From contig JAPLES010000023.1 in assembly GCA_026391075.1 (NCBI GenBank), positions 53,574 to 117,573 on the forward strand: a DNA stretch of 64,000 nt. Direction: 5' to 3'. The position numbers and the translations under genes are program-made. Source of the DNA: Bacteroidota bacterium. GTDB lineage: Bacteria > Bacteroidota > Bacteroidia > Chitinophagales > LD1. Below are positions 1,475 through 64,000 of this stretch, in pieces; position 1 is the stretch's first letter, and every line of letters begins with the position of its first letter. The notes under the pieces were generated by a model. That model did no database searches, was not told the origin of the DNA, and worked only from the letters and a program-made list of their open reading frames with translations.

Positions 1475-1527
1475 ACCCCTAAATCCCCTTCCCGATGGGG
1501 CATGCGGGATGAAACAAAAGGGGACTT
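1475..1527. repeat. REP-like palindrome (CCCCTAAATCCCCT..AGGGGACTT) with a nested 27-nt hairpin element
   Basis: Outer stem TCCCCT/AGGGGA; inner TCCCG-atggggcatg-CGGGA-TGAAACA at 1490-1516. Confidence 0.7.
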
Positions 1528-1565
1528 TAATACAGAAATACATATGAGTTGGTTACTGCAACACA

Positions 1566-2483
1566 TCACACTGAAATTTTTGTTTCAATAAAAGAAAATA
1601 TTTCCTCGCGGTGTTCGGGTTGGAACCATTGAACGCCATCATCCTTTTTAAACCAAGTCATTTGTCGTTTGGCGTAGTTTCGTGTGTTTTGTTTGATGAG
1701 CGCAACAGCATTTTCGAAAGAAATTTTGTCTTCAATAAAATCAAACAATTCTGTATAGCCAACTGTTTCAAGCGCGTGTAGTTTCTTGTTGATGTAAAGT
1801 TCTTTTACTTCTTCCAACAAACCTTGCTTGAACATTTCATCAACGCGATTATTTATTCTTTCATTGAGAACTTCGCGTGGTAAACTCAAACCTATTTTGA
1901 TGATATTGAAAGGTCGTTCTGTTTTTTTGCCAATGCGTTGTTCGCTATATTTTTTTCCGGTGGTATAAATTATTTCAAGAGCGCGTTTCAGGCGGACAGG
2001 ATTTTTTTTGTCCACCTTTTCGAAATATTCAGGGTCGAGTCGTTCAACCTCTTGTTGTAACCAATCCAAGCTTTTCTCATTGAGAAATTTGCGGGTAACA
2101 TATAGTTGATTGTCATCTTCTCGTTCAAACTTATCGAATCCACTGCAAACTGCATTGATAAATAAACCTGAACCACCAACCATCACCGCAATGCTTTTCT
2201 CTTGGAAATATTTCTCCAAAAACTCCAATACTTCAAATTCATACTTGCCTGCGCTATAATGTTTGGTGTGAATAGAAATATTGTTGACGAAGTGGTGTGG
2301 CACTTCCGATAACTGTTCTTCAGTTGGTTTTGCAGTGCCAATGTTCATCTCCTTGTAAAACTGACGCGAGTCAGCAGAGATAACTTCAGCACTGTATTGC
2401 TTGGCAATTTCTACGGCCAAAGAAGTTTTACCAATGGCAGTTGGTCCGCAGACAACAATTAGAGATTTAAGATTAGAATTCAT
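1566..2483 (-). CDS. miaA: tRNA dimethylallyltransferase
   Basis: GPTAIGKT P-loop, SADSRQFY, GTAKP, VGGSGLF, TRNYAKRQMTWF. Confidence 0.97.
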   Translation of the reverse strand: MNSNLKSLIVVCGPTAIGKTSLAVEIAKQYSAEVISADSRQFYKEMNIGTAKPTEEQLSEVPHHFVNNISIHTKHYSAGKYEFEVLEFLEKYFQEKSIAVMVGGSGLFINAVCSGFDKFEREDDNQLYVTRKFLNEKSLDWLQQEVERLDPEYFEKVDKKNPVRLKRALEIIYTTGKKYSEQRIGKKTERPFNIIKIGLSLPREVLNERINNRVDEMFKQGLLEEVKELYINKKLHALETVGYTELFDFIEDKISFENAVALIKQNTRNYAKRQMTWFKKDDGVQWFQPEHREEIFSFIETKISV

Positions 2484-2485
2484 TG

Positions 2486-3898
2486 TCAAACTCTTTTCAG
2501 TCCTAATTTTTCTCCTAATTCCAACATCATCTTACACGCTTCTTCGTAATCATTTCTGATTTTCCCTTCGAGAATTGCTTCCTTGATTTCTTCTTTTATC
2601 ACGCCAATTTCGCGCGATGGACCAATGCCGAATGTTTCCATAATCAACTCACCCGTAACAGGTGGTTGAAAATTTCTCACTTGGTCCTTCTCTTCAACCT
2701 CTTTCAATTTTTCGCGCACCACTTCAAACCTTGTGAGATATCGTTTCACTTTCTCACGATTCTTCGAAGTAATATCTGCCTCGCATAGTGAAAGCAGATT
2801 TTCAATATCGTCACCTGCTTCAAACAATAATCTTCGCAAAGCAGAATCGGTAATTTCTTCTTTAGTCAATGCAATGGGACGCAAATGCAGGTAAACCATT
2901 TTGCGAACAAATTTCATTTCGTTGCCCATAGGTAATTTCATGCGACCAAAAATTTTCGGCACCCATTTACTACCAAGAACTTCATGTCCGTGAAAAGTCC
3001 ATCCAGTTCCTTCTACAAATTTTTTTGTCGGTGGCTTGGCAATATCATGCAACACTGCCGCCCAGCGCAGCCATAAATCATTGGTGGATTTAGTGATGTT
3101 GTCTAACACTTGTAGTGTGTGATAGAAATTATCCTTATGTCCTTTGCCCTCGTAATTTTCAACTCCTTTCAACTTCTGAAATTCAGGAAAAATAATTTCG
3201 AGCAAACCACATTCTTCCAAGAGTATAAATCCAATGCTCGGAGTTTTAGCCAGAATAATTTTGTTCAGTTCCTCGGTAATGCGTTCCTGTGAAATAATTT
3301 TGATGCGCTCTTTGTTTCGCTTAATCGCATCAAATGTTTCGGGAAGAATTTTAAAATCCAATTGCGTGGCAAAGCGGATGGCGCGCATCATGCGCAACGG
3401 GTCATCGCTAAAAGTAATATCAGGGTCGAGCGGGGTGCGAATCAATTTCTCTTCCAAATCTTTTACTCCATTAAATGGGTCAAGCAATTCGCCAAAAGAA
3501 TTTTTGTTGAGCGAAATCGCCATCGCGTTAATCGTAAAGTCTCTGCGATTCTGGTCGTCTTCAAGCGTTCCATCTTCCACAACTGGTTTACGAGAATTTC
3601 TATCGTAGCTTTCTTTTCTCGCACCTACAAATTCAAAATCAAAATCGTTCCAACGAAATTGTGCGGTGCCGAAATTTTTAAAATAGCTTACGTGTGGTTT
3701 ATCTGAAATTTTTTCTGTGGCTTTTTGCGCGAGTTCAATGCCACTACCTACACAAACAAAATCAATGTCCTTACAGTTTCTGCCGAGCAATTGGTCGCGC
3801 ACGAAGCCGCCAACTACATAGGTTTCGAAATTTAATTCGCTGGCAGCTTCAGAAATTATTTTAAAAATTGGATGAGATAAATCGAATTGTTTGTTCAC
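2486..3898 (-). CDS. cca: CCA tRNA nucleotidyltransferase with HD domain
   Basis: VGGFVRD, DIDFV, RRDFTINA, DDPLRMMRA, LHDIAKP; GTG start. Confidence 0.9.
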   Translation of the reverse strand: MNKQFDLSHPIFKIISEAASELNFETYVVGGFVRDQLLGRNCKDIDFVCVGSGIELAQKATEKISDKPHVSYFKNFGTAQFRWNDFDFEFVGARKESYDRNSRKPVVEDGTLEDDQNRRDFTINAMAISLNKNSFGELLDPFNGVKDLEEKLIRTPLDPDITFSDDPLRMMRAIRFATQLDFKILPETFDAIKRNKERIKIISQERITEELNKIILAKTPSIGFILLEECGLLEIIFPEFQKLKGVENYEGKGHKDNFYHTLQVLDNITKSTNDLWLRWAAVLHDIAKPPTKKFVEGTGWTFHGHEVLGSKWVPKIFGRMKLPMGNEMKFVRKMVYLHLRPIALTKEEITDSALRRLLFEAGDDIENLLSLCEADITSKNREKVKRYLTRFEVVREKLKEVEEKDQVRNFQPPVTGELIMETFGIGPSREIGVIKEEIKEAILEGKIRNDYEEACKMMLELGEKLGLKRV

Positions 3899-3944
3899 GT
3901 GCCAAACCTACTCCAAAAACAAAAAAGACAAAATAGGATTTTGA

Positions 3945-5219
3945 TTATCGAAAAATAATCATGGCAGGTTTTCGAGCATCAGCAGGTCGCATACTTTGCA
4001 AATGTTGGCCAGAAACAAAATTAAGCGCAGGAGTTACACGAAGTTTTGACTGCAACGAAGTTTTAATTTTTTGCTCTGCCGTATCTAAACTTCCTGCAAG
4101 CGCAATATGAATTTGTATTTCGTCTGTTCCTAAATCGTTCTTTGTTATCTCAACCATGTAATCTTTCACTTCGGCAACAGCACTCAACGCATCATAAATA
4201 GACGGAGGAAAAATAGTCGTGCCTTTGTATTTTATCATTTGGTTCTTTCTGCCGACTACGGGAGAAAGGCGAATAGTATTTCTTCCACAAGCGCAAGGCT
4301 CATCGTAATAACAACAGATATCGCCTGTTCGGTAACGCAACATAGGCATTCCTTCAATGGATAAACTCGTGATAGTTACTTCGCCAAATTCTCCGGCTTG
4401 TAATTGTTTTCCTTCATCATCCAGAATTTCAACAATCAGCAATTCAGGATTATGATGTCCGCCTTTACCTTGCTCGCATTCTGTAAATGCAGTTTGCATT
4501 TCGGTTGATGCGTAAGTAGAAAACAATTTCAGACTCCATTTCTCCTGAATTCTTTTTGCCATTGTATTCGGAGATAAATCAGCGTTGCGAACTGGTTCAC
4601 CAATACAAATGGCGCGTTCAATTCCTAATTTGTTTACATCAATGTTGTTTGCTTCCGCATAATCAATCAACTTTAAAATGAAACTTGGAACAGCAACAAT
4701 TGCATTTGGTTTGAAGCGATGAATGTTTTCCCATTGCATTTGCGGAGAGATGGGACCAACACGAACAGCCGCTGCACCTAATTTTCTTATACCGAGATAG
4801 TATGCCATGCCTGCCATAAATTGTCGGTCGAGCGTGAGCATGAGTTGATACACATCTGTTGACTTTCCATTAGCGCAGATGAAAGATTGCTCTTCGTTGT
4901 AAGCCAAACGTTGTAAATCATTTTCAGTTAAAGCAATAGTTACAGGAGAACCTGAAGTGCCAGAAGTGGTGGAATAATCAATGATTCTATTTTTCGGCAC
5001 GCAGAGAAAATCAAAATTGTAATTGCTGAAATCTTCTTTGGTGGTAGTTGGAATTTGAACTAAATTTTCAAGTGAGTTTATCGTTTCAATTTCAATTTCG
5101 TGCTTAGCAAAAAGTTTTTTGTAGTAAGGAGAATTCTCTTTGAGGTAAACTAGCTGCTCTTTCAGTTTGTATTCCTGAAAAGATTTTATTGCGGAAAGAG
5201 ATTGTGTTTGAATGTTCAT
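3945..5219 (-). CDS. phenylacetate-CoA ligase family (AMP-binding) protein
   Basis: TTSGTSGSP, YASTE and RYRTGD adenylation motifs. Confidence 0.88.
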   Translation of the reverse strand: MNIQTQSLSAIKSFQEYKLKEQLVYLKENSPYYKKLFAKHEIEIETINSLENLVQIPTTTKEDFSNYNFDFLCVPKNRIIDYSTTSGTSGSPVTIALTENDLQRLAYNEEQSFICANGKSTDVYQLMLTLDRQFMAGMAYYLGIRKLGAAAVRVGPISPQMQWENIHRFKPNAIVAVPSFILKLIDYAEANNIDVNKLGIERAICIGEPVRNADLSPNTMAKRIQEKWSLKLFSTYASTEMQTAFTECEQGKGGHHNPELLIVEILDDEGKQLQAGEFGEVTITSLSIEGMPMLRYRTGDICCYYDEPCACGRNTIRLSPVVGRKNQMIKYKGTTIFPPSIYDALSAVAEVKDYMVEITKNDLGTDEIQIHIALAGSLDTAEQKIKTSLQSKLRVTPALNFVSGQHLQSMRPADARKPAMIIFR

Positions 5220-5587
5220 TTACTTTCAATTATTACAAAGGCAACTGCCGTTTCTTTAATGTGCGAAAGCGAAATATGAATTTGCCATCCTCCTTTTTGT
5301 TCAAATACCTTAAGTGTTTCTCCACTTAGTTCAATGAATGGTTTGCCGAGTTCATCATTCAGAATTTCAACTTCATTGATATTCATTTTGTCTCTCCACC
5401 CTGTGCCCAGTGCCTTGAAGAAAGCTTCTTTACCAGCAGCACGTGCCGCGAAACTCTGACACGATTTATCGCGTTCGCAATATTCAATTTCACGTTTTGA
5501 AAATACCTTTTCTTTCAACGCATCTTTCTCAATTGCTTTGCGCACACGCTCAACTTCTATTATGTCCGTGCCCGTTCCCAATATCAT
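5216..5587 (-). CDS. acpS: holo-ACP synthase (4'-phosphopantetheinyl transferase)
   Basis: GTGTDIIE, FAARAAGKEAFFKALGTG, GKP, ISLSH. Confidence 0.93.
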   Translation of the reverse strand: MILGTGTDIIEVERVRKAIEKDALKEKVFSKREIEYCERDKSCQSFAARAAGKEAFFKALGTGWRDKMNINEVEILNDELGKPFIELSGETLKVFEQKGGWQIHISLSHIKETAVAFVIIESK

Positions 5588-7260
5588 TGCACCGCTTTTA
5601 TTTCTTCCCGCATTTTATCGGCTTCGTGTGTATCGTTAATTTCTTTCGTCAGCGCTAAATCAAAATATTTTTTGGCTGAAGCCTTATCGCTTTTTGCTTT
5701 GTAATACTCGCCCAAGTAAAAATACGTTTCCCAAAATTCAGGATTGAATTGAATGAAGTTGTTTGCTGTATTCTTTTCGTTGTTCAATTCCTTCTTGTCG
5801 TTCGTAGCGTGTTTTATTTCCTGTTTCAGTTCGCGCCATTGCAAAAAGTTTTCCCAATCGGCAGACAACAAAAATGAATCGGCAGGAATGGCTAAGGCAG
5901 TTTCATTTAATTCTCGATTCTCTTTCATTGAAGGCGCTTCAATAAATATTTTTTTCAAATCGTAACAAACAAATTCTCCTTCCTGATAAGGATTCGCACT
6001 TACCCAAAACCGTAACTTCTCAGGTTGAAAAATAATAGCATGATGTGAAATCAATTGATTCAATGCTTTCTCATTTCCTATTCCAATGTTTTTGTCCTGC
6101 TGTCCTCGTTGGTCGCGAAGAATTGAAGCCACATTTTTATAATCGAGTTTGGCACTACGATTCATCAATTCTTCCAAACGATGGAAGCGATACATCGAAG
6201 CACTGGTCGCGATGTTCTCGATGTTGTTTTTATCGTTTTTGAAACTGTCGCTTTGATAATGATTAGCGCATAAAATAAAATCAGTATCGCTGTTGAACAG
6301 AATAGTTTTAGTGATGCTCTTTTCAATCAACGAAGTTTTATGGTCGGGTGCAGAACCAATCATCAGCGTTTCGCAGACAAAAGTTTTTCTCCTTTTAGCA
6401 ATGGAATATGCTTCGTCAATATTGTTGGCGTATTGCAAAATCTCTCTTGCCAAAATTGAAATAGGGGTAGTTGCACCATTCGGAATATCACTCTTGGCAG
6501 CATTGATGGTAATCGTAATTCCCTTTTCATTCATGCCCGAAACACAACCCATAAAACCCGCCCAGGTAATCATGACGAACTTGTTCCCTTGTTTCGGATT
6601 GCAGAAGTAAACGATTTTGTTTTCGGAAAATTTATCGCCCAAATAAAAATCAAGATTGCGACCGATAATCATAGAGGAATCGGCACTTCGCTCATTCCAT
6701 GCGGCAAAGGAAGTGCAACCAACCAATGCCAAACTTTGCAAGGCATGACCAATGTCGTGCGCGGCATGATAATTCAACATTCTATCGTAAGCAGGGTTGA
6801 TAAAATCAAACTCGTGCGGAGCCGAAAATGATTCTCCGTAAATCTCCAGCTTATTTTCTTCAGGAAAATTTTCATCTAAATGGCGATTGAACACACGAGT
6901 AAACCAACCAAGATATTTTAAGTAAGAATTGTTGGGAACAAGATTATGGATTTGGTCAACGAAGGCGACCTCTTGTGAATACAACAATTCCTTTTCAAGT
7001 TTACCTCTAATTACTCCGCGCTCAAAAGGTTCGCCTTCTATATACTCTTCCCACAAACCGCTTTCGTTTTTGCGCAACCAGTTATTGCCAATGCGGTAAA
7101 AGTTTTCTCCAACTTTCTCGCGCTGTAAATTCAAACTTGATTTATCTTTTACTTCGGGAATATGCGGAGCTAAGCCATATTGAATATAGAGATACCCCAC
7201 CAGCAAAAGCAGAAGAAGAAAACCAAAAGTGTAAGCGAGAAATTTTAAAACTCTTTTCAT
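5584..7260 (-). CDS. C45 family autoproteolytic acyltransferase/hydrolase with C-terminal TPR
   Basis: G-CTSF nucleophile site, GRNLDF, SGMNEKG, N-terminal TM. Start moved to MKRVLK (7260) because the extension is repeat DNA. Confidence 0.85.
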   Translation of the reverse strand: MKRVLKFLAYTFGFLLLLLLVGYLYIQYGLAPHIPEVKDKSSLNLQREKVGENFYRIGNNWLRKNESGLWEEYIEGEPFERGVIRGKLEKELLYSQEVAFVDQIHNLVPNNSYLKYLGWFTRVFNRHLDENFPEENKLEIYGESFSAPHEFDFINPAYDRMLNYHAAHDIGHALQSLALVGCTSFAAWNERSADSSMIIGRNLDFYLGDKFSENKIVYFCNPKQGNKFVMITWAGFMGCVSGMNEKGITITINAAKSDIPNGATTPISILAREILQYANNIDEAYSIAKRRKTFVCETLMIGSAPDHKTSLIEKSITKTILFNSDTDFILCANHYQSDSFKNDKNNIENIATSASMYRFHRLEELMNRSAKLDYKNVASILRDQRGQQDKNIGIGNEKALNQLISHHAIIFQPEKLRFWVSANPYQEGEFVCYDLKKIFIEAPSMKENRELNETALAIPADSFLLSADWENFLQWRELKQEIKHATNDKKELNNEKNTANNFIQFNPEFWETYFYLGEYYKAKSDKASAKKYFDLALTKEINDTHEADKMREEIKAVQ

Positions 7261-7272
7261 TTCAATAAGGTT

Positions 7273-7330
7273 AACACAAAGGCGCGAAGGCGCAAAGAAA
7301 TTCAACTTCGTGTCTTTGCGTCTTTGTGTT
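7273..7330. repeat. inverted array of 8-nt repeats
   Basis: ACACAAAG-GCGCGAAG-GCGCAAAG ... CTTCGTGT-CTTTGCGT-CTTTGTGT forms a long imperfect hairpin. Confidence 0.7.
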
Positions 7331-7332
7331 TA

Positions 7333-8856
7333 TCAATTTTTGTTCGCTCCTAAAATTTTATTCAACAAATATTCCTTCCCAATAACTGCCCCGCAAGTTA
7401 CCAAAGCACTTTCGGTAACGCCCAACACACCATGCAAATTTATATTCTGCCCGGTCAAAAACAGATTAGGCACTTTTGTTTTCACCGAAATCATCGTCTT
7501 CATCGGATCGTTAAAGTCTTTCACAATGCCATACATATTGCCGTCAACAGTTCCCATATAATCTCTGTATGAAAGAGGCGAAGAAGTATAATAGGATTGA
7601 ATGCAGTCGCGAATATTCGGAAACTTAACAGCGATTGTGTCCAGCAGTTTTTCTGCCTTCTGCTTTTTAAATTCCTGATACTCTTCGTTGCGGTTGCTCT
7701 CTTCAAGTGTAGTATTGAAACTGTCTTTCCATTTTTCAACTTCATCAAATCGCATGTAAGTCATCACCGTAATGGCTTCAGTAAATTCATTTTGCTTTTC
7801 AGGAACTTCTTCAAAGAGAGCATACATGCTCGGAAAGTTGTCGGGTTTGTAATCAACACAAGTCCAAACATTTTCTTCGTTGAAATAATAGTAATTGCGA
7901 TTGCGAAAAGGGAAAATGCTCGGCTTCAAAATCAAATACAAAACAAAAGTGGAAATAGAATTCTCCAATGAACTAATGCGATTGCGATAAGCCGGACGGA
8001 TTGCATCCGTCTCTGTCATCGCAAGAGTTTTGGCGGGATGGATATTCGAAATGAAAACTTCCGCTTCAATCTTTTCCCCTGTGCTTAGTGTTACAGATTT
8101 TGCATTTCCATTTTCTACATCAATGCTTTTCACGTCATGCTTACGCAAAACTTCCCCGCCATTTTCTTTGATGATGCGCGCCATCAGTTTCACAATTTGG
8201 TCGCCACCGTTTTTTATTTTATAGGCACTTTCGATATAGCTGTTTACCACCAGTGCATGAACATATAAAGGTGTTTTTTCTGTTCCGGCATACAACAGAT
8301 TTGTTCCCGCCAAAACATTTTGCAGTTTTTTATTTGGTGTTAGTTGTTCGAAATAATCTTTTGCGCTTGTCGAAAGCATCTCCATGTTTTCTATCTCTCC
8401 TTCGCGTAAATTATAGAGCGGAACACTATCGCAAATGCGTTTCATATCACTGCAATATTTTTCAATTACTTCTTCTTCATCCGAAAATTTTGAAAGTAGT
8501 ATACGTTTAAAATTTTCGTAGCCCATGCCATAAGGATATTCCTCGATGTCATCTTTAAACATTACTACATCAAAACCTTCTTCATCCATACGCGCGGTTT
8601 CTAATCGTTGCATGATGCCGAGGTAATTGAAAATTTTATAGAGCGAATTCTCTTTGGATAAACCACCGATGTAATGCACACCGGTATCGAAGGTTACTCC
8701 TTCGCGTTTGAATGTTTGCAGGCTTCCGCCTATCTGTTCATTCTTCTCAATAATGCAAACACGGTTGCCTTCTTTGCTTAGAATAGTGCCGCACACCATT
8801 CCGCCCAAACCACTGCCGATGATGACAACATCAAAATGTTTTTTGCTGATTTCCAT
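7333..8856 (-). CDS. NAD(P)/FAD-dependent oxidoreductase (phytoene desaturase/retinol saturase family)
   Basis: IIGSGLGG Rossmann fold, GGSLQTF, FDTGVHYIG, NLFLTGQN-HGVLG. Confidence 0.88.
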   Translation of the reverse strand: MEISKKHFDVVIIGSGLGGMVCGTILSKEGNRVCIIEKNEQIGGSLQTFKREGVTFDTGVHYIGGLSKENSLYKIFNYLGIMQRLETARMDEEGFDVVMFKDDIEEYPYGMGYENFKRILLSKFSDEEEVIEKYCSDMKRICDSVPLYNLREGEIENMEMLSTSAKDYFEQLTPNKKLQNVLAGTNLLYAGTEKTPLYVHALVVNSYIESAYKIKNGGDQIVKLMARIIKENGGEVLRKHDVKSIDVENGNAKSVTLSTGEKIEAEVFISNIHPAKTLAMTETDAIRPAYRNRISSLENSISTFVLYLILKPSIFPFRNRNYYYFNEENVWTCVDYKPDNFPSMYALFEEVPEKQNEFTEAITVMTYMRFDEVEKWKDSFNTTLEESNRNEEYQEFKKQKAEKLLDTIAVKFPNIRDCIQSYYTSSPLSYRDYMGTVDGNMYGIVKDFNDPMKTMISVKTKVPNLFLTGQNINLHGVLGVTESALVTCGAVIGKEYLLNKILGANKN

Positions 8857-8886
8857 TAGATGGAAGGATGAGAAAAGCCGGTTAGT

Positions 8887-41993: not shown

Positions 41994-42629
41994 ATGGCAG
42001 AAGAGAAAATGAGTTTTGCAAAAAGTGTGGTGCTGGTGTTTGGATTGGTAGCGGTGTTGTGGATTGTTTTTCTACTTCAATACTTCGGTATCATCAATAC
42101 TGATGCTTACGGAAACTGGCCTCATCACAAAGAAGGATTGAAAGGAATTATTTTCTCTCCGTTCATTCACGGAAGTTTCGAGCATCTCATCTCCAACTCA
42201 CTTCCGATTATTGTTTTGCTTACAGTTTTGCTGAACGCATATCCTTCAACGGCTTTGTATGTGTTGGTATTCATTCACATCACCAGTGGAAGTTTGGTTT
42301 GGTGTTTAGCTCCCGATAATGGAGTCCATATTGGCATCAGTGGAATTATTTATGGCATTGCAGGATTTTTAGTTGCCTCGGGTTTGTTTCGTAAGGACAG
42401 AACTTCTATAACCATTGCACTTTTTGTGGCACTCTCTTATGGAAGTATGGTGGTAGGTTTTATTCCCGAAAAAGGAGTGAGCTGGCAATCGCACTTGTAT
42501 GGAGCAATTAGCGGAGTGCTGATTGCTTTTGTGTTTCGCAAAAAAGATTTGCCGCCACCACACGAATTTGAATTAGAAAAAACGGAAGACGAAAAACATT
42601 TTTTCGATAACACCGAGCAAACGATTTAA
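41994..42629 (+). CDS. rhomboid family intramembrane serine protease
   Basis: PFIHGSFEHLISN, HIGISG (GxS), SWQSHLYG. Confidence 0.92.
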   Translation: MAEEKMSFAKSVVLVFGLVAVLWIVFLLQYFGIINTDAYGNWPHHKEGLKGIIFSPFIHGSFEHLISNSLPIIVLLTVLLNAYPSTALYVLVFIHITSGSLVWCLAPDNGVHIGISGIIYGIAGFLVASGLFRKDRTSITIALFVALSYGSMVVGFIPEKGVSWQSHLYGAISGVLIAFVFRKKDLPPPHEFELEKTEDEKHFFDNTEQTI

Positions 42630-42655: not shown

Positions 42656-42687
42656 TTCCGCAACGCTTTTAAAAACGGGATGAAACA
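42656..42687 (+). repeat. hairpin-tail mini-element copy (32 nt) inside an 8-mer array
   Basis: TTCCG-caacgcttttaaaaa-CGGGA-TGAAACA flanked by ATTTTCAA/ATTTTTAA units. Confidence 0.6.
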
Positions 42688-42711: not shown

Positions 42712-43992
42712 ATGTATATCAATGTTCCCGAAGTAAAAGTTCCGCGCGTAGTTATTATAGGTTGTGGCTTTGGCGGTTTAGAACTCGCCAAACAATTGAG
42801 CAAAGCCGAAGTACAGATTGTGCTGCTCGACAAAAATAACTACCACACGTTTCAGCCTTTGTTGTATCAGGTTTCTACTGCGGGTTTAGAAGCCGATTCG
42901 ATTGCTTACCCCATCCGCAAAATATTTAAGGGGCAGAAGAACTTTCACTTCCGCATGGGCGAAGTGCAGCAAATTGTTTCAGCAGAAAATAAATTATTGA
43001 TAAGCATTGGTGAATTGAAATACGATTACTTAGTTATTGCCACCGGTTCTACCACCAACTACTTTGGCATAAAAGATTTTGAGCAGAACGCCATGCCCAT
43101 GAAAAGCGTAACCGAAGCACTCGACCTCCGCAGTTTAATTCTTCAGAATTTTGAAAAGGCTTTGCTCACGAAAGATTTACAAGAGCAGGAAGCACTGATG
43201 ACTTTTGTAGTTGTAGGTGGCGGACCAACCGGTGTGGAGTTAGCCGGTGCTTTATGCGAATTAAAGAAACACGTATTGCCAAACGATTATCCCGAACTCG
43301 ATTTTAGAAAGATGCGCGTGATACTGATTGAAAACGGTAGCGAGCTTTTGCAAGCCATGAACGAAACCAACCGCAAGCGCGCTTCTACTTATTTAGAAGA
43401 ACTTGGTTGCGAAGTGTGGCTGAACACCGGTGTCGTAAAATATGATGGAACGATTGCAGAAACTAAAACAGGAAAGCAACTTTACACTTCAGGTTTAATT
43501 TGGGCAGCAGGTATTAAAGCAGTTTTGATTGATGGATTAAACAAAGATTCGATTAACGCGCGTGGAAGAATTTCTATTGATGAATACTGTAAAGTAAAAG
43601 GACACGAAAACATTTTTGCCATTGGCGATGTGGCTTGCATGGTGCAGGAAAAATATCCGAACGGACATCCGCAAATAGCACCCGTGGCTATTCAGCAGGC
43701 GCAATTGGTGGCAAGCAATTTGAAAAAAACTTTCAAGCAATGGACGCTCAACAAGTTTAATTACTTCGATAAGGGAACGATGGCAACCGTTGGCAGAAAT
43801 CGCGCGGTGGTGGAAGTTGGCAAAATTACTTTCGGAAGATTGTTTGGATGGCTTGCGTGGATGGGCTTGCACTTAATGTTACTCGTTGGTTTCCGTAACA
43901 GAGTTGTTGTGTTCATTAACTGGGTGTGGAGTTATATTAACTATGATAGAAACATGCGCCTGATTATTCGTCCGTTCGTGCGCAAAAAATAA
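42712..43992 (+). CDS. ndh: type II NADH dehydrogenase
   Basis: IIGCGFGG, FQPLLYQV, VVGGGPTGVELAG, WAAG, FAIGD, KGTMATVGR. Confidence 0.9.
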   Translation: MYINVPEVKVPRVVIIGCGFGGLELAKQLSKAEVQIVLLDKNNYHTFQPLLYQVSTAGLEADSIAYPIRKIFKGQKNFHFRMGEVQQIVSAENKLLISIGELKYDYLVIATGSTTNYFGIKDFEQNAMPMKSVTEALDLRSLILQNFEKALLTKDLQEQEALMTFVVVGGGPTGVELAGALCELKKHVLPNDYPELDFRKMRVILIENGSELLQAMNETNRKRASTYLEELGCEVWLNTGVVKYDGTIAETKTGKQLYTSGLIWAAGIKAVLIDGLNKDSINARGRISIDEYCKVKGHENIFAIGDVACMVQEKYPNGHPQIAPVAIQQAQLVASNLKKTFKQWTLNKFNYFDKGTMATVGRNRAVVEVGKITFGRLFGWLAWMGLHLMLLVGFRNRVVVFINWVWSYINYDRNMRLIIRPFVRKK

Positions 43993-57035: not shown

Positions 57036-57847
57036 GCGGTTAGGTTGTAGAGATTGAAATGCAAATGCTTAGGAAACACATCGAACGCTTTGGAGAAATG
57101 AATGGCATCGGGTTTCTGAATAAAATTGACGTGGCGAAAATAACGATAACACAAATCGTAAATCTTACTTTGAATATCCACTTCGCCAATGAGCACCAAC
57201 TCCGTTTTCTCTCTGTCAATTTTCAAATCTTCGCAACACTGCAAAACGAAGTAAATAAAATCGCTTGCCGCTTGGTAATCGTAACGATTCATCAGTTGCA
57301 ATTCTTTTGCTTCGTTGAAACGGATAATATCTAAATGCGATTGGTTGACGTTGACAAAAAGTTTTTCTGTAGAGTCAACCAAATATTCAGAAAGCAATTG
57401 AAAGTAAGTAGAGTTGACATGAAGCACTTCGGAAGCAGGAAATAATTTACGAAGCACTTGCAGCAAAGATGCAGCTACTTCAAAAACAAGTTGTGCATCG
57501 CCACAACTTTGCGAAAGTTGTTCGGACTTGTTTATGGTAAACGAAAACTCATTGGGAACCAGCGAATACTTTTCATCTACACCAAGCAACACTTTTGAAA
57601 ACGGAAGCTGGAGAATTTCATCCTTCTCAAAAATCTTTTCTAAACGCTGTGCTAATTCATTGGCGTTAACTACATGATGCAAGGTGTAATCACCAAAAAA
57701 AATTACTTGTCCGTGAGTTTGATTGATTACAAAATATCGAACTGCATTTACTGTAATGCAAATTTTCAAAACCAAAGTAGAAGGAGAAAGACTTGCTTCT
57801 ACTTCGCCAATACTGTTGAATGAATTTTTTATTTGCGCGGGTGCCAT
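57032..57847 (-). CDS. DUF3822 family protein
   Basis: YSLVP, DFIYFVL, YRYFR; position upstream of rsmD typical of Bacteroidota. Confidence 0.8.
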   Translation of the reverse strand: MAPAQIKNSFNSIGEVEASLSPSTLVLKICITVNAVRYFVINQTHGQVIFFGDYTLHHVVNANELAQRLEKIFEKDEILQLPFSKVLLGVDEKYSLVPNEFSFTINKSEQLSQSCGDAQLVFEVAASLLQVLRKLFPASEVLHVNSTYFQLLSEYLVDSTEKLFVNVNQSHLDIIRFNEAKELQLMNRYDYQAASDFIYFVLQCCEDLKIDREKTELVLIGEVDIQSKIYDLCYRYFRHVNFIQKPDAIHFSKAFDVFPKHLHFNLYNLTA

Positions 57848-57938
57848 AAAGCGAAAATAGAATTGTTATGTAAAAAGCATTGATGAATTTACCTTTTACA
57901 ACTAATCGTTTACCGCTAAATTCCTATGTTTGAAAAGT

Positions 57939-58379
57939 ATGAAAAAGTTAGAGTCAAGAAATCCGAATTTTAAAGCCTATGTCGAATTGATGATTTCGCG
58001 CAATAAGTTTATGAATTGGATGGGTTTGGTAATGACAAAAATTGAAGCCGGTTATTTAGAAGGCGAACTTGATTTTAAAGATACACTCGAACAACAAAAC
58101 GGATGGCTGCATGGCGGAGCCACGGCTACTATACTGGATATGATACAAGGATTTGCTTCGTATTCAATGGTTGAAGAAGGGCAAAAAGTTTTTACGGTGG
58201 AAGCAAAGGTTTCGTATTTCAACCCCGGTGATGCACAAAAATTTTATGCGCGCGGTGGCGTTATTAAACCGGGCAAGCGTTTTCATTTTTGCGAAGCAGA
58301 AATTTATTATTTGAAAAACGGAGAAGAAGTAATTGTGGCAAAAGGAAGCGCGACTATGGCAGTGATCACCTCTCCCTAA
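57939..58379 (+). CDS. PaaI family thioesterase
   Basis: QQNGWLHGG...ILD, TVEAKVSYFNP. Confidence 0.9.
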   Translation: MKKLESRNPNFKAYVELMISRNKFMNWMGLVMTKIEAGYLEGELDFKDTLEQQNGWLHGGATATILDMIQGFASYSMVEEGQKVFTVEAKVSYFNPGDAQKFYARGGVIKPGKRFHFCEAEIYYLKNGEEVIVAKGSATMAVITSP

Positions 58380-58508
58380 TCCTCTCCTCCCGCGAAGAAA
58401 CACGGGATGAAACAAAAGGAGAGGGAATAATTCCGTATAAAAATGAAAGAGTTGTTTATTATAAAAAGACAAAACAAGTTCCTCCCCTTCGGGGAGGTTA
58501 GGAGGGGT
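58369..58508. repeat. inverted REP pair; the first copy carries the nested 27-nt element
   Basis: CCTCTCCCTAATCCTCTCC-[TCCCGCGAAGAAACACGGGATGAAACA]-AAAGGAGAGGG and an inverted CCTCCCC-TTC-GGGGAGGTTAGGAGGGG at 58481-58508. Confidence 0.8.
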
Positions 58509-58510
58509 GA

Positions 58511-59848
58511 ATGGCACAGCTAAAAGCAACATACAAGCAAATACTCACCATCTCTTTGCCGCTTATACTCGGCAACACAGCATGGACGAGCAACGGTGTG
58601 TTCGATACAATTTTCGTGGGCAACCTCGGTAAAATTGAATTAGATGCCATCGGCTTTGCCTCAATTTTTTACTCCGTTTTGTTTATGATGGGCTTCAGTT
58701 TTACACGCGGCACACAAATGCTTATTGCGCGCAGAATGGGCGAACTCAACAAACACGAAGTAGGAAATATTGTGGACACCACCATCGTGGCAATGCTTTC
58801 TGTTGCGGTGTTGTTTTTTGTGCTGCTCAAAATTTACACGCACCAGATTTTGAGTTTCATGCTCACCAATCAGGATATTATTTCAAAGAGTGAAGAGTTT
58901 TTGGATTACCGCTTGTGGGGTTTGCTGCCTAGTTTTGTAAGTTTTGTTTTCATTGCGTTTTACTCGGGCATTGGGCGCACACCCATTCTTGCTGCATCGG
59001 TTGGGGTAATGACTTTTTTCAACGTGTTTCTGAATTACGGTTTGGTATATGGTAAATTCGGATTGCCTTGCATAGGTATTGGTGGCTCGGGTCTTGCTAC
59101 TTCTATTTCCGAGACCTTGGCAGTGCTGGTTTTATTTCTCGGCACTTTCTATAAGCATCGTATACACGATTTTTACTTATTCCGTTTTAAAAAATTCGAT
59201 TTGCCGCTCATGAAACAAATGAGCAACATGGCAATTCCGCTCATGATTCAATCAGGTGTAGCAGTAGGTTCATGGTTGTTTTTCTTTGCGCGTATTGAAA
59301 CAGTTTTAGGAAAAGACTCGCTCGCTATTTCCTCTATCTTCCGTCAGTTGATTTTGTTCTTCACCATTCCTACCTGGAGTTTGGGCTCTACTGCCAATAC
59401 GCTTATCAGTAATATGGTTGGGCAAAAAGACTATAGCGGAATTAAAACAGCAGTGCGCAGAATTTCATTGGTGAGTTTGTTCTTTGCGGTTATTTCCTGT
59501 TTAATCATTTTGGTTTTTCCAAGATTCTGTATAGGCATTTTTACCAGCCCGCAAGATTATGCGCTTATACCAATGGCTACCGAAATTCTTCCGGTAATTT
59601 TTGTGGTGTTCATCTTAATGGCGTTTGCAAATATTTTGTTCAATGGTGTAATCAGTCTTGGTGATATTTATATCGCGCTCGGAATTCAGGTGGTGGTAGT
59701 GATTGTTTACATCGTGTACTTTCAGGTCATGTTTGCCATGCCATTTGTAAGCACGTTCTGGATTTGGACAGCCGAATGGGTTTACTGGCTCACCAATTTA
59801 GTGGCGTGTTTGGTCTTCTTTAAATACAAACACCTCAAAGTAGTTTAA
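58511..59848 (+). CDS. MATE family efflux transporter
   Basis: DTIFVGNLG, NVFLNYGLVYGKFG, GSGLATSISE; about 12 TMs. Confidence 0.92.
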   Translation: MAQLKATYKQILTISLPLILGNTAWTSNGVFDTIFVGNLGKIELDAIGFASIFYSVLFMMGFSFTRGTQMLIARRMGELNKHEVGNIVDTTIVAMLSVAVLFFVLLKIYTHQILSFMLTNQDIISKSEEFLDYRLWGLLPSFVSFVFIAFYSGIGRTPILAASVGVMTFFNVFLNYGLVYGKFGLPCIGIGGSGLATSISETLAVLVLFLGTFYKHRIHDFYLFRFKKFDLPLMKQMSNMAIPLMIQSGVAVGSWLFFFARIETVLGKDSLAISSIFRQLILFFTIPTWSLGSTANTLISNMVGQKDYSGIKTAVRRISLVSLFFAVISCLIILVFPRFCIGIFTSPQDYALIPMATEILPVIFVVFILMAFANILFNGVISLGDIYIALGIQVVVVIVYIVYFQVMFAMPFVSTFWIWTAEWVYWLTNLVACLVFFKYKHLKVV

Positions 59849-59851
59849 AGG

Positions 59852-59942
59852 AAAGTACAAATTGAAAAGTATAAAGTATAAAGTGTTGGTAATCGACTAC
59901 TTGATTATCGGTTTGTACTTTCTAATTTGTACTTCGTAATTT
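59852..59942. repeat. inverted heptamer arrays
   Basis: AAAGTAC AAATTGA AAAGTAT AAAGTAT AAAGT ... TTTGTAC TTTCTAA TTTGTAC TTCGTAA TTT. Confidence 0.7.
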
Positions 59943-59947
59943 AAAAG

Positions 59948-60649
59948 ATGGAAGAAAACGTAATCAGCTATTCTAACGTAAATATTTATCAGGGCAATTC
60001 GCTTGTGCTAAGTGATGTGAACTTTGAAATGAAGCAAGGCGAATTCATTTATCTCATTGGCAAAACCGGTGCAGGCAAAAGCAGTTTTATAAAAACGCTG
60101 TATGCCGAAGTTCCTATAAAAGAAGGCGAAGCGAATGTTTGCGGTTACAATTTAAAGCAGTTGAAGAAAAGTGAAATTCCTTTTCTGCGCAGAAAACTCG
60201 GCATTGTATTTCAGGATTTTCAATTGCTGAACGATAGAACTGTACACTCCAATCTTGATTTTGTTTTGAAGGCAACAGGCTGGGAGCACAACGAAAAACG
60301 CGAAGAGCGAATTGCCGAAGTGTTGAATGAAGTGGGGCTTTCGCATCTCATCGCTAAAATGCCCTACCAAATTTCAGGTGGAGAACAACAGCGTTTAGTT
60401 ATTGCGCGCGCACTCCTAAATAATCCACCACTTTTAATTGCCGATGAACCAACAGGAAACCTCGACCCTGAAACTTCAGATGATATTATTAAGCTGCTTA
60501 TCAAAATAAATCGCGAACACAACACGAGTGTATTGATGGCTACCCACAATTACCAATTGATAGATAAGTATCCTTCTAAGATTTACAGTTTCTCCAACAA
60601 CTCTGTCAATTTAGAAAAAGGGATTTATGTAAAAGGATTTGGGGATTAG
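59948..60649 (+). CDS. ftsE: cell-division ABC ATPase FtsE-like
   Basis: GKTGAGKS, FLRRKLGIVFQDFQLL, SGGEQQR, ADEPTGNLDP. Confidence 0.85.
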   Translation: MEENVISYSNVNIYQGNSLVLSDVNFEMKQGEFIYLIGKTGAGKSSFIKTLYAEVPIKEGEANVCGYNLKQLKKSEIPFLRRKLGIVFQDFQLLNDRTVHSNLDFVLKATGWEHNEKREERIAEVLNEVGLSHLIAKMPYQISGGEQQRLVIARALLNNPPLLIADEPTGNLDPETSDDIIKLLIKINREHNTSVLMATHNYQLIDKYPSKIYSFSNNSVNLEKGIYVKGFGD

Positions 60650-62040
60650 AATTTCCTCACCGTAAAATGGAAAGTGGTTCCTTTTCCATCTTCACTTTCG
60701 AACCAAACTTCGCCATGGTAATACTCTACAATTTTTTTGCAGATAGCAAGGCCAATTCCGGTTCCGTCATATTCATGCTCGTTGTGCAAGCGCTTAAACA
60801 TTTGGAAAATAGTAGCAGAATATTCTTTTGAAATTCCTATTCCGTTATCGGAAACAGTAAACGTGTAAAAATTAAGTGAGTTGGTGCAACTGATATTTAT
60901 GGTTGGCACTTCGCTCTTATTAAATTTCAAACCGTTGCTGATTAAATTTTGAAACACGTGATACATCAATGATGAATGCACGTTGTTGACCACCGGCAAT
61001 TCCCTATTGATATTAATTTGCCCACCAGTTGCTGTCAATTTATCGCGCAGTTCAAATCGAATGGTATTAATTACATCATTCAAATTCACCGGTATGGGTT
61101 TGGGAAGATTAGTCCCAATTCTACAATAGGCCAACACATCATCAATCAAACGCTCCAATCTTTTTGCGCCCAAATGTGAGTAATCTACAAACTCCTTTGC
61201 TTCGGGGTGTAAGGTGCTGCCATACTTATTCAGCAGCAAATTCATAAAGCTTGAAATATTTCGTACGGGCGCTTTCAAATCGTGCGAAATAATGTAAGCG
61301 AATTGTTCCAAATCAGAATTGGAGCGTTTCAATTCAGAAGTTTGCAACATCATTTGTGCATTGGAAGATTCCAGTTCTTTCTCGGCCTTGCGATTGTAAA
61401 ACACAAACTGATAAACCGCCAGCAACATTAGCATGAACTGCAAAATAACGCCCATGCGGGCGAGCAAAATTTGGTCGTCTATTAAAAAATGATTTGCCGA
61501 AAAATAAGGCTCAACAAACTCATACGCGTAAATAAAAAGCAAAGGCAATACAACACCAATGGTAATGAAGCCTACCTTTTTGATATCGAAAAACAAAAAT
61601 GGAATTACTACCGAAATGATAAAATAATTTAAGCCCTGTGCATGTGGCCCTATATAAACTGCACTTACAAAAAGCGCAAAGTTCATGAGCACGATGAACA
61701 GAATGCGCGAGGCATCTATTTTGCCAAAAGCATTCATCACTAATAATACAATCGAGGATAAACTCAAACCTGAAATAATGCCGAACCATTCCCATTTTTC
61801 CCAAATAATACCGAAACTGAGATACAGCATTGAGCCGCCAAAATATATAAGCGCAATAAAATTAGAGATACGCACATGCTTGCGGTCGTTTATTTCGGTT
61901 ACCGCATCGGCCCCAAGATTGACCAATGAACGATAAATGGAAGTGAACGGATTGATTTCGTTGTTGTGAACTTTTTGTTCATACTCAACAGCCTTATCTG
62001 TTAGTGAAAACTCTGCGGTGTTGGAATATTCGTTAGCCAT
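60646..62040 (-). CDS. membrane sensor histidine kinase
   Basis: About six TMs, LEQFAYIISHDLKAP H-box, NLISNGLKF, DNGIG, GTGIGL; start set at MANEY. Confidence 0.92.
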   Translation of the reverse strand: MANEYSNTAEFSLTDKAVEYEQKVHNNEINPFTSIYRSLVNLGADAVTEINDRKHVRISNFIALIYFGGSMLYLSFGIIWEKWEWFGIISGLSLSSIVLLVMNAFGKIDASRILFIVLMNFALFVSAVYIGPHAQGLNYFIISVVIPFLFFDIKKVGFITIGVVLPLLFIYAYEFVEPYFSANHFLIDDQILLARMGVILQFMLMLLAVYQFVFYNRKAEKELESSNAQMMLQTSELKRSNSDLEQFAYIISHDLKAPVRNISSFMNLLLNKYGSTLHPEAKEFVDYSHLGAKRLERLIDDVLAYCRIGTNLPKPIPVNLNDVINTIRFELRDKLTATGGQININRELPVVNNVHSSLMYHVFQNLISNGLKFNKSEVPTINISCTNSLNFYTFTVSDNGIGISKEYSATIFQMFKRLHNEHEYDGTGIGLAICKKIVEYYHGEVWFESEDGKGTTFHFTVRKF

Positions 62041-62250
62041 TGTTTCGTGTTGAAATACAATTCCTGTTTTGTTTACACCAATACCGACCAAAAGTTACAT
62101 AAGACCACAACTATTTCGTTGAAAAGTAGCCAACCTTTTTTCCGGGCAAACCCTCCAACTCATTTTTAGCAAGTCTAAATAAGAGTAAAAATTGACATGC
62201 TTTTAACCTCACGTTAGTAAAGGAATAAGAAGTTAAAGTCCACTTCGTCA

Positions 62251-63231
62251 CTAGTTTTTCTTTTTCACAATTTTAGAATCAAAAATGCCACTTACATAGA
62301 TTGAATTTCGAAACGCTAAGGCTGTAGATGCTGCACTCACTTGCCTGCCATCATCAAAATATTCAACTGTTCTTTTTTTTGTAGACGGATTAATTCGGTA
62401 AACTGTAGAAGGCGATAATTGTTTGGGGTCTTTATAATGTTTCAAGAATTTAAGAAAGCGCAGATGACAAGCCACTAACAAATCATCGCCATCAAAACGA
62501 AGATTATCGGCACCGTTTGCTTTTACAATTACTTTACGATTCAACATTTTGCCATCTTTAAAATCAAATTGCCAAACTTTATTTTGCATGGTGCTAGCCA
62601 AATATACTTTGCCATCTTTATTGGTAATGCCATTGGTAAAGGCATATTTTTCAGAAGCTACGGAACAATTATTACCATTCCAAAAAATGATTTGCGCCTT
62701 ACGCATTTTAAAAAGTATTTCCCAAATATTGTTTTGTTTTTTAGCATCGTTGCTCACCAGCAAAGTGCCATCGGCAAATCCGGTTACAGCATTGGGCGAG
62801 GAAATTAACGGGTCGCTAATTTTATTTTGAAACACCAATTCATCTTTTAAAACACGATAACGCAAAATGGAATTGATTCGAGTTTCGCCAATATGCTCGT
62901 GATTGACGACTAGTAGAATTAAATTACCATTCACTTTTACCAAATCAATTCCGTGCGGATTAAACAGCAAACCGTTTGGCTCGTTAGTGCGCTTCAATAT
63001 TTTATTCGTTGCCGTTTCAGTGTAGTAAACAAAAATTTCTCCGTATTGCTTTTCACTTTTTCTTCGGGCACTGCACGACAACAACAGACGAGGTTGCTCA
63101 GTAATAGAATCTACAACCATATCCTCGGGTCCAATAGCAGTTGTAATTATTTCATCTTTTGTTTGAAACATTTTGGGAAGCGAAACGCAAGAAGACAACG
63201 CGAGAAAAAGAAAGGGGAAATATTTTTTCAT
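62251..63231 (-). CDS. paraoxonase/arylesterase-like six-bladed propeller lipoprotein
   Basis: GPED, FNPHGI, TNGI, ADNL, VACH, PSTVYRI, YFDDG match the PON motif series; lipobox LSSC. Confidence 0.8.
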   Translation of the reverse strand: MKKYFPFLFLALSSCVSLPKMFQTKDEIITTAIGPEDMVVDSITEQPRLLLSCSARRKSEKQYGEIFVYYTETATNKILKRTNEPNGLLFNPHGIDLVKVNGNLILLVVNHEHIGETRINSILRYRVLKDELVFQNKISDPLISSPNAVTGFADGTLLVSNDAKKQNNIWEILFKMRKAQIIFWNGNNCSVASEKYAFTNGITNKDGKVYLASTMQNKVWQFDFKDGKMLNRKVIVKANGADNLRFDGDDLLVACHLRFLKFLKHYKDPKQLSPSTVYRINPSTKKRTVEYFDDGRQVSAASTALAFRNSIYVSGIFDSKIVKKKN

Positions 63232-63309
63232 GTAAAATAATTAAGTGTGAATCTAAAATTGTTTCCAGATTCCATTGCGTATTTTTATGTTCGTAGAACA
63301 AATTCATCA

Positions 63310-64000
63310 ATGAAAAACCTACGTATTGTATTCAATTTGAAACCCGCTCCCGCGAAGAAACACATGATGAAACAAACCTGCAACCTGAAACTTTTCCTGT
63401 CTCTCGTCTATTGTCTATTAGCTATCATCTGCACTGCACAAATTATCCCCGCCAACATAACTATAGCACGCGATAGTTTTGGTGTGCCGCATATTTACGG
63501 ACACACCGATGCTGATGCCGCTTACGGTTTAGCGTACGCGCATTGCGAAGATGATTTCAAAGACATTCAACAAAATCTTTTAGCTGCAAAAGGTATGCTG
63601 GGCGAAGTGGTTGGAAAAGATGGTGTGCTCTTCGATTATGGTTTAAAATTTTTCGGCATTGATACGCTCGTAGATAACAACTACGACCAAAAACTTTCTG
63701 CCGATTTTAAAAAAGTGTTGGACGCTTACATACAAGGCGTAAACGATTATGCCGCTAAACATCCCGAAGAAGTGTTACTCAAAAAAGCATTGCCGTTTAC
63801 TTCCAAAGAAATTATAAAAAGCTCTACGCTCACGCTCACACTTTTTGCCGGTGCCGGTATGGCGTTGAAATCAATCAAAGAAAATCACATTGAGCTTTTG
63901 CATCAACCAAATGAAGTTGGTTCTAATTCTATGGCAATTGCTCCTTCGCGCACAAACGATGGTAAAGCGTGGTTGCTTATCAATTCGCATCAACCTATCG
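63310..64000 (+). CDS. penicillin/AHL acylase family Ntn hydrolase (5' part, runs off the window)
   Basis: Manual translation ...IARDSFGVPHIYG.TDADAAYGLAYAHCEDDF...VG-SNSMAIAPSRT.DGKAWLLINSHQP; start at 63310, 63364 or 63367. Confidence 0.9.
   Translation, partial: MKNLRIVFNLKPAPAKKHMMKQTCNLKLFLSLVYCLLAIICTAQIIPANITIARDSFGVPHIYGHTDADAAYGLAYAHCEDDFKDIQQNLLAAKGMLGEVVGKDGVLFDYGLKFFGIDTLVDNNYDQKLSADFKKVLDAYIQGVNDYAAKHPEEVLLKKALPFTSKEIIKSSTLTLTLFAGAGMALKSIKENHIELLHQPNEVGSNSMAIAPSRTNDGKAWLLINSHQPI
63348..63374 (+). repeat. 27-nt mini-element copy inside a heptamer array
   Basis: TCCCGCGAAGAAACACATGATGAAACA (25/27 identical to 58388-58414) between AACCCGC and AACCTGC AACCTGA. Confidence 0.75.

Follow-up and report, generated by a model that had tools for sequence, protein, structure and literature searches.

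A 27-nucleotide hairpin-plus-tail element, probably mobile, nested in the repeats of a Bacteroidota genome

Background

The small dispersed repeats (SDRs) of Nostoc are the closest known kind of sequence to the one analyzed here, a family of short hairpins with a fixed tail, typically 27 nt long, which is present in four copies in a stretch of 64,000 nt from a Bacteroidota bacterium (GenBank assembly GCA_026391075.1, contig JAPLES010000023.1, positions 53,574 to 117,573 of the forward strand); this whole stretch is called the window. In the 2008 work of Elhai et al., SDR1-8 of Nostoc punctiforme and its relatives are said to be nested within one another and within tandem heptamer repeats, and some SDRs reportedly form hairpins. 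We know of no enzyme for SDRs. The palindromic elements of Rickettsia measure roughly 100-150 bp.

According to the available parts of PMC3116915, PMC2884548 and PMC5861425, SDRs are dispersed sequences of about 21-27 nt that are seen as insertions when orthologues are compared, and the part of PMC5861425 available reports no SDR-like repeat outside the Nostocaceae among the HIP1-enriched cyanobacteria examined. Repetitive extragenic palindromic (REP) sequences and REPINs are thought, in portions of PMC3116915 and PMC6006769, to be moved as single-stranded DNA (ssDNA) by a Y1 HUH enzyme. Excerpts of PMC6006769 (Quentin et al. 2018) also describe a subclass 1.2 of Y1 transposases as low-copy, generally without typical IS200 ends and found mostly in Cyanobacteria and Bacteroidetes, and give it no known substrate. 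A literature search, with most subscription journals outside its reach, found no account of the element or of SDR-like elements in Bacteroidota, and in the accessible portion of PMC4679880, on the TAACTGA heptamer, the words 'inserted', 'interrupted' and 'Elhai' are absent.

Results and discussion

Structure and abundance of the element

The window belongs to a draft genome of 3,606,139 bases and 40% G+C (G000). This genome was set against its two nearest relatives (G008 and G052), used for the comparison of filled and empty sites, a genus sample of 40 genomes and an order sample of 16 other families. A sequence-only reading of the window had noted four copies of the element, and all four were found at the places it gave, those at 1490-1516, 58388-58414 and 63348-63374 being 27 nt each; the last of these has CATGA in place of CGGGA and matches the copy at 58388 at 25 of 27 positions. 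The 12-mer CGGGATGAAACA occurs 43 times in G000, against 0.3-0.4 occurrences expected from base composition and none for the reversed 12-mer taken as control. A genome count far above chance was one of the tests that the sequence-only reading had set, and 43 copies against about 0.4 is such a count; the plus-strand orientation of all its copies holds within the window and not genome-wide, where 25 are forward and 18 reverse. Among the non-low-complexity 12-mer families of G000 this one ranks second, after a GCTTCGACAAGCTCAG-type repeat. One-mismatch variants of CGGGATGAAACA number 36, against 17 for the control, and these low numbers indicate that the family is sharply defined.

The unit consists of (T/C)CCCG, a loop, CGGGA and the tail TGAAACA. 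A recognisable 5' arm is present in 105 of the 109 copies of G000, G008 and G052, and the four copies without a clear one are all point variants. Length is 27 nt in 53 of the 105, 24 nt in 14, 26 nt in 14, 21 nt in seven and 23 nt in six; 99 fall within 21-28 nt, and longer copies are rare and due to nesting. The loops vary freely (CGTAAGG, CTGAAACAGA, ATGAAACATA, CGAAGAAACG, CAAG and others) and mostly lengthen the 5-bp stem TCCCG/CGGGA, for which two copies have the compensated stem TTCCG/CGGAA. Upstream of TGAAACA, CGGGA is the sole enriched stem (33 of 65 hairpin-preceded sites). As ssDNA the 27-mers fold with -3.9 to -4.7 kcal/mol, or about -9.5 kcal/mol together with host hairpins, and the bottom strand of the element reads 5'-TGTTTCA followed by the hairpin.

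Two other small families were seen beside this one. A sister element, TCCC(T/G)ATGAAACAT(A/C)GGGA-TAAACCA, occurs in G000 at C57:78270-78320 and C49:25650-25710, only nested at one fixed point of the loop of the main element, after ...GAA. The mini-palindrome TCCCGATA-NN-TATCGGGA lies in C1:540-680 and at about 12 further loci of G000 (e.g. C1:20084, C44:95765 and C74:19593); at C1:612 it occupies what would be the anticodon-loop position of a second, tRNA-like copy directly behind an apparently intact tRNA gene.

Filled and empty sites in related genomes

At orthologous sites the element is present or absent as a whole unit, with no target duplication and no loss of host sequence. The sequence-only reading had left precise empty sites to be looked for in relatives, and they were found for two window copies, for the leuS copy described below and for at least ten others. 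Copy 3 (58388-58414) is empty in G008 (88% identical over 1 kb), where CCCTCTCC runs into GAAGGAGAGGG with nothing between. Contigs from sequencing runs were also compared: copy 3 is empty in a contig of X3, a different study (about 94% identical over 57056-59219), in which 27 letters are missing, listed as 21 + 6 at 58388 and 58410, and it is kept in contigs of X2, X4 and X6. The holders listed in the run search include freshwater and lake metagenomes, and no RNA run is among them. At copy 2, G052 lacks exactly 42661-42687 and retains the preceding TTCCG in flanks that are 93% identical. This copy is therefore an insertion of 27 nt, and not of the 32 nt (42656-42687) previously attributed to it, TTCCG being already there in the empty orthologue.

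For a reverse comparison, flanks of 800 nt to either side of each of the 66 copies of G008 and G052 were mapped onto G000. Forty copies had collinear flanks, 20 had no collinear orthologue and six had flanks that mapped far apart or overlapped. Among the 38 alignable pairs, six were filled in both genomes (number 6 with a compensated stem variant in G000), number 10 was a chance match in coding sequence without a hairpin, and at least ten (numbers 15, 16, 25, 27, 31, 43, 45, 49, 55 and 58) showed a single clean gap equal to the element; in the remaining aligned pairs the spacers were too rearranged to read. A seventh shared filled site, number 64, with CGGGATGAAACA present in G000, lies beyond the 38 aligned pairs. 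At number 58, with flanks 100% and 99.7% identical, CCT[TCCCGTGTAAGACGGGATGAAACA]AAATCC faces CCT joined directly to AAATCC. The boundaries there cannot be shifted by a single base, and not one base of the target is duplicated or of the host lost. We conclude that the sequence is very likely a mobile mini-element, and it is likely that the family as a whole consists of ultra-small, non-coding, non-autonomous mobile DNA elements.

Two stretches, G000 C85:41100-43200 against G052 C13:24127-27566 and G000 C28:19736-19825 against G052 C27, are 97-100% identical between the two genomes, whose flanks compared elsewhere are 77-94% identical. This near-identity suggests recent exchange between the two species. 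The C85 stretch holds three copies of the element, two of them bracketing yraN.

Target sites and host repeats

Over 98 distinct sites, the element follows C or T in 91, and the first and second bases after it are A in 72 and 70, respectively. The insertion point is Y^AA, and orientation is constant relative to the host repeat. Host hairpins are typically entered on the 5' side of the loop, as in CCCCT^AAAGGGG, CTCTCC^GAAGGAGAG and CCGCC^AGCGG, and heptamer arrays at the junctions of units, as in AATCATC^AATCATC, TATTGTC^TATTGTC and AACCCGC^AACTCGT. One copy may also nest in the loop of a second, as at C57:78306 and C49:25667. Only one close pair was seen (C90:12195 and 12245); its members have the same direction and occupy neighbouring host hairpins. 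Nearly all copies stand inside hairpin repeats or heptamer arrays and, as the sequence-only reading had it, removal of the element restores the host repeat: empty orthologous sites exist for copies 2 and 3, and empty host hairpins are common in G000, with 15 of CTCTCCGAAGGAGAG and 19 of CCCC[CT][AG]AAGGGG.

The loop CGTAAGG was found at six sites and CTGAAACAGA at six, in differing host repeats, and one host type bears many loops. Since the same whole element stands in different hosts, the unit itself appears to transpose, rather than to spread by gene conversion between filled and empty repeat copies. A 'recombination scar', the other description offered from the letters alone, is disfavoured by these identical whole elements in different host repeats and by the failure to find a longer parent with such ends. 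Counts, empty sites, nesting and the lack of an Rfam match all support that reading's proposal of a very small non-autonomous element that lands in repeat DNA.

By crude open reading frame (ORF) calls, 32 of the 43 copies are clearly intergenic. Twenty-two of these 32 are downstream of a same-strand stop codon, 21 of them within 7-81 nt, and the opposite orientation relative to genes also occurs.

The host hairpins are themselves a family, whose architecture is fixed while its sequence varies: X-(Y)AAA(Y)-X-GAA/TAA-revcomp(X)-CTTTAAATACAAA, in which X is CCTCTCC, CCCCC, CCTCC and the like. It was seen at 1475-1525 and 58367-58425 of the window and throughout G000 (e.g. C14:177828 and C25:27260), with at least 34 empty copies just past stop codons. 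Within each host locus both X copies are identical, so that the lone G-rich arm could pair with either.

Copies within genes

Four G000 copies lie mid-way in long ORFs and are read in frame. In leuS, the gene for leucyl-tRNA synthetase (C62:31583-34534), the G000 protein reads ...KLQSTNY, SRKESRDET, KLQTNTEK..., and in the G052 protein KLQSTNY is followed directly by KLQTNTEK; the copy is thus a 9-codon in-frame insertion between genes of 86% nucleotide identity. The 28 other leuS loci of the genus have unrelated sequence in that loop, and for this reason the event is taken as an insertion. Of the 105 copies in the three genomes, 12 have a frame that stays open for 80 codons or more to either side; the chance coding match is among these 12. 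The 11 true in-frame copies are 27 nt (eight) or 24 nt (three) long, all multiples of three; outside such frames, 64 of 93 copies have a length divisible by three.

The same surface loop of leuS (G000 C62:32000-32200; L080-L108) is replaced in several species by short low-complexity stretches (KLQSTNYKLQTNTEK, KLKGKSEKLKVG and SKFEIRNSRFEI) that look repeat-encoded; elsewhere in the genus a conserved FETxGC...W motif is retained at this place.

Distribution among genomes

The element is patchily distributed within the genus. Counts of the 12-mer in the 40 genus genomes range from 0 (11 genomes) to 51, the highest being those of G052 (51), G004 (49), G000 (43), G024 (43) and G043 (25). The 16 other families sampled in the order have 0-2 copies each. 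A pattern scan of a genome collection (596 Gb) gave at least 119 loci, with about 600 chance matches expected by estimate, and is used here for neither a count nor a range. Among the matches listed, only those of Bacteroidota in palindromic hosts or with several copies per contig look genuine; the listed ones include palindromic-host copies in metagenome-assembled genomes (MAGs) of other Chitinophagales and Bacteroidota, and several-per-contig copies in MAGs labelled Cytophagales and Flavobacteriales.

Candidate enzymes and alternative explanations

The best guess for the mover, along the lines suggested by the sequence-only reading, is a tyrosine transposase of Y1 (HUH) type from the IS200/RAYT superfamily, to which we give somewhat less than an even chance. 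The element would move as ssDNA, cut and rejoined in trans by this enzyme; TGTTTCA, at the 5' foot of the bottom-strand hairpin, would be laid out like the short conserved tag that such enzymes read. Near-neutrality in spacers and surface loops is probably what lets copies persist. G000 has one Y1 transposase gene (C44:55563-56009; Pfam Y1_Tnp 76 bits, NCBIfam IS200/IS605 NF033573 62.7 bits) and three RAYT-like genes (C47:23408-23980, C61:63894-64469 and C33:56984-57571, with NF047646 scores of 85.8, 75.9 and 65.0 bits at a cut-off of 80). All four are outside the window, in agreement with the sequence-only reading, which saw no HUH/tyrosine enzyme in it. Across the genus, 650 nt on each side of strong Y1 matches was surveyed and 65 of 67 loci were parsed. 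All 65 Y1 proteins bear Y---Q--HH, the signature of TnpA_Y1 subclass 1.2, and their genes sit among hairpin-plus-tail units. Two of the genes have a look-alike hairpin 2-25 nt upstream, ATCCCGTAGGGATGAAACA at L073 (G050) and ATCCCGTAGGGATGAAAC at L247 (G004). The former contains GGGATGAAACA and the latter GGGATGAAAC, GGGATGAAAC(A) being common to both, with outer stem TCCC/GGGA and tail as in the element and in an identical register; the chance expectation for such 10-mers in 65 windows of 100 nt is estimated at about 0.006. A second Y1 clade carries CATCCC..GGGATGAAAT(A/G)C, and G023 has one true copy of the element at 145 nt downstream of a Y1 gene.

Several results weigh against a Y1 mover. 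The L073 and L247 proteins are 62-73% identical and belong to one clade, and amount to about one independent observation. In G000 all copies are at least about 34 kb away from the four Y1/RAYT genes, and each of these genes is flanked by its own, differing hairpins; copies flanking such genes, for which the earlier reading had proposed to look, were thus not found in this genome. With other Y1 proteins of the genus, the one from G000 shares no more than about 44% identity. Over the 40 genomes, Y1 gene number and copy number are uncorrelated (Spearman 0.18, p 0.28): in G051, 16 copies occur without a strong Y1 match, six 0-copy genomes have one or two Y1 genes, and G050 and G022, whose Y1 genes have the look-alike hairpin, have 0 copies. 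The look-alike foot GGGATGAAAYRC revealed no expansion beyond the known element in G022, G001, G018, G050 and G004. The strand of the element follows local GC skew in 18 cases and opposes it in 20 (in a draft genome whose skew is weak, with a median absolute value of 0.015), and the target is merely Y^AA, without a defined tetranucleotide as in IS608-type elements. Very little speaks against mobility itself: outgroups polarise the event, as insertion or as precise loss, only for leuS.

Each RAYT-like gene of G000 is bracketed by a private inverted REP pair (CGCAGGGTC..., GGCATGACTAAGCA... and GGTGTCAGACA...), a textbook REPtron layout in Bacteroidota. In six Y1 genes of relatives (L073, L247, L072, L280, L282 and L283) the HUH motif is NH(K/N/D/R)H and not DHxH; the charged or polar middle residue is unusual, and activity may be altered or lost.

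The probability that lies outside a Y1 mover is divided between host recombination or template switching and another enzyme. A process without a dedicated enzyme, by recombination, template switching or gene conversion between host repeats with rare entry into new repeat types through microhomology, seems unlikely to us. It would fit with the location of nearly all copies in repeats able to supply short homology, with the absence of a cognate gene beside any copy and of any recurrent gene family among their neighbours except one cluster of large secreted proteins, and with the lack of correlation between Y1 genes and copies. However, a given element variant recurs across unrelated hosts and many variants occur in a single host type, the junctions leave no ambiguity, element ends and flanks having no bases in common (number 58), orientation is fixed relative to the target, and stem and tail are invariant while loops drift, suggesting that they are read. 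A similarly low probability is given to a mobile element that depends on another enzyme, such as a GIY-YIG or PD-(D/E)xK homing-type nuclease, an IS110-like recombinase, or a phage or plasmid enzyme missing from the assembly. G000 does have two small GIY-YIG genes, but both are flanked by the GCTTCGACAAGCTCAG-type repeat and are at least 69 kb from any copy, and GIY-YIG was rejected as the mover. The YraN nuclease gene (C85:42621-42989) is bracketed by two inverted copies in surroundings 99-100% identical between G000 and G052, but it is single-copy in 37 of 40 genomes irrespective of element load; the bracketing was read as coincidence and this candidate too was rejected. As for phages, no Microviridae Rep (protein A) gene was found in G000, phage records gave no blastn match to copy 3 with its host, and viral contigs gave 29 single-copy pattern matches and no multi-copy contig, which is taken as chance level. 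IS91-type Y2 transposase had no match in G000 and none in the control genomes, so that this result is uninformative.

Two further explanations do without a mobile unit of this size, and both are considered highly improbable. The element could be a functional motif kept by selection at each site, serving to bind a protein, to stabilise or terminate RNA, or to start translation (GGG AUG AAA CAA). The striking invariance of the 12-mer, the 22 of 32 intergenic copies past same-strand stops (21 of them within the 7-81 nt given above) and the start codon that copy 4 may supply would agree with such a role, whereas presence and absence at near-identical orthologous sites, both orientations relative to genes, in-frame copies in leuS and other ORFs and the eleven genus genomes without any copy would not. 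Nor does any Rfam family match: the window gave 0 matches at gathering score, and 58330-58530 gave 0 at E<=1. The constant ends and variable middle would also suit the footprint of the excision of a larger transposon, joining ends TCCCG... and ...CGGGATGAAACA. The variable middles, however, are self-complementary stem extensions and not nested deletions of one sequence, identical full units stand at several sites, no such pair of ends was found around a longer insert, and point variation accounts for the four copies in which the 5' arm is unclear. A CRISPR repeat was rejected, as G000 has no 18-mer array at 45-95 nt spacing but an unrelated repeat at C90:12434, and so was a DDE-type miniature inverted-repeat transposable element (MITE), as no clean junction has a target duplication.

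Returning to a Y1 mover, it is doubtful that subclass-1.2 Y1 proteins move SDR-type ultra-small elements in both Cyanobacteria and Bacteroidota. If true, the 27-nt hairpin-plus-tail would represent a minimal substrate with one hairpin, from which the heptamer/hairpin repeat landscape shared by the two phyla may have been seeded, and in-frame entry into essential genes would make the element a natural generator of protein loop insertions.

The two GIY-YIG genes of G000 (C57:9088-9417 and C1:195-404) are each flanked by the commonest repeat of the genome, of GCTTCGACAAGCTCAG(C/G)ATGACA type (core 12-mer in 92 copies), and may form with it a nuclease-plus-repeat pairing.

The four copies of the window

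All four copies are on the plus strand. Copy 1 (1490..1516, 27 nt) has TCCCG, a loop, CGGGA and TGAAACA, folds with -4.7 kcal/mol, and is antisense in the spacer between the minus-strand ORFs 1566..2489 and 248..about 1474. Its host hairpin (1475..1525, plus strand) is made of ACCCCTAAATCCCCT and AAAGGGGAC, with the element at the 5' side of the loop, and the same repeat is uninterrupted at C17:111 and C60:716 of G000. Copy 2 (42661..42687), between the plus-strand ORFs 41994..42629 and 42712..43992, is a 27-nt insertion with a degenerate 5' arm of its own (CAACG); TTCCG at 42656-42660, which is able to pair with its CGGGA, is host DNA. Copy 3 (58388..58414, 27 nt) starts 9 nt past the stop codon that ends ORF 57930..58379 and occupies the loop of a host hairpin with arms CCTCTCC/GGAGAGG (58367..58425, plus strand), made of CACCTCTCCCTAATCCTCTCC and AAAGGAGAGGG. 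Copy 4 (63348..63374, 27 nt), with its stem broken (CATGA), lies within a run of AACCYGC heptamers at the 5' end of ORF 63247..63999 and is also present in an X3 contig (61703-64000). Its ATGATGAAACAA may supply the start of a signal peptide (MMKQT...). No orthologous empty site was readable for copies 1 and 4, relatives having unrelated spacers at both.

Copy 4 and its heptamers (63310-63440) fall where an ORF for a secreted protein encodes its N-terminal region, and the element gives PAKKHMMKQ if in frame; the G052 orthologue has a different N-terminus without the element.

The spacer of copy 3 holds a second repeat at 58479-58513, TTCCTCCCCTTCGGGGAGGTTAGGAGGGGTGAATG, composed of a C(TTCG)G hairpin and AGGAGG, then the ATG of ORF 58511..59848; its 30-nt core is found with 93-100% identity at many loci in many genus genomes. 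The spacer itself (58380-58510; orthologues L002-L010) measures 6 nt in G051 and G050, whose stop and start codons are almost adjacent, and 21-147 nt in eight other genomes, where it holds unrelated palindromes built from heptamer arrays. Spacers in the genus turn over very quickly.

Comparison with known systems

At 27 nt, the element is near the lower size limit of mobile DNA and, if mobile, among the smallest mobile DNAs known. Where it inserts, it remodels spacers and hairpin terminators as well as the starts of signal peptides and loops of proteins, and it can break assemblies and alignments. The family is suited to experiment, since its 12-mer is invariant, its junctions are exact, sister species offer many pairs of filled and empty sites, and leuS holds an in-frame copy; the old question of what moves tiny repeats becomes testable with a few candidate enzymes and short oligonucleotides.

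Like the ends of IS200/IS605 elements as described in the available parts of PMC6006769, the element shows no target duplication, oriented insertion and a subterminal hairpin a few bases from the cut, and look-alike hairpins adjoin Y1 genes in relatives of G000. IS200/IS605 elements, however, have left and right end hairpins and a target tetra- or pentanucleotide, whereas the element has one hairpin and Y^AA only, and it is several times smaller than their known miniature derivatives. REP/REPIN sequences with RAYT, as portrayed in portions of PMC3116915 and PMC6006769, resemble it as short hairpins with a conserved foot tag, mostly extragenic and in many copies. Their foot tag, given in an excerpt of PMC6006769 as GT[AG]G, differs from TGTTTCA, and no GTAG occurs in the element. 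REPINs are inverted doublets, but the element is found as singletons; in a REPtron the RAYT gene is flanked by the same REPs, but the element flanks no RAYT or Y1 gene of G000; and the element, unlike REPs, is polymorphic as a cleanly inserted single unit and also lies in frame within genes. The palindromic elements of Rickettsia are likewise palindromic selfish DNA tolerated in frame, although the present element has 27 nt and is mostly intergenic.

With the SDRs of Nostoc the element has in common a size of about 20-30 nt, dispersal, precise insertion polymorphism and nesting in heptamers, in repeats and in itself. The phylum differs, being Bacteroidota here, and this family is a hairpin with a fixed 7-nt tail; the likeness drawn here is one of description. 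SDR-like elements are not confined to Nostoc-type cyanobacteria, and the element is a real, cleanly defined family of 27-nt hairpins of the SDR/REP-like kind, in a phylum from which that kind had not been described.

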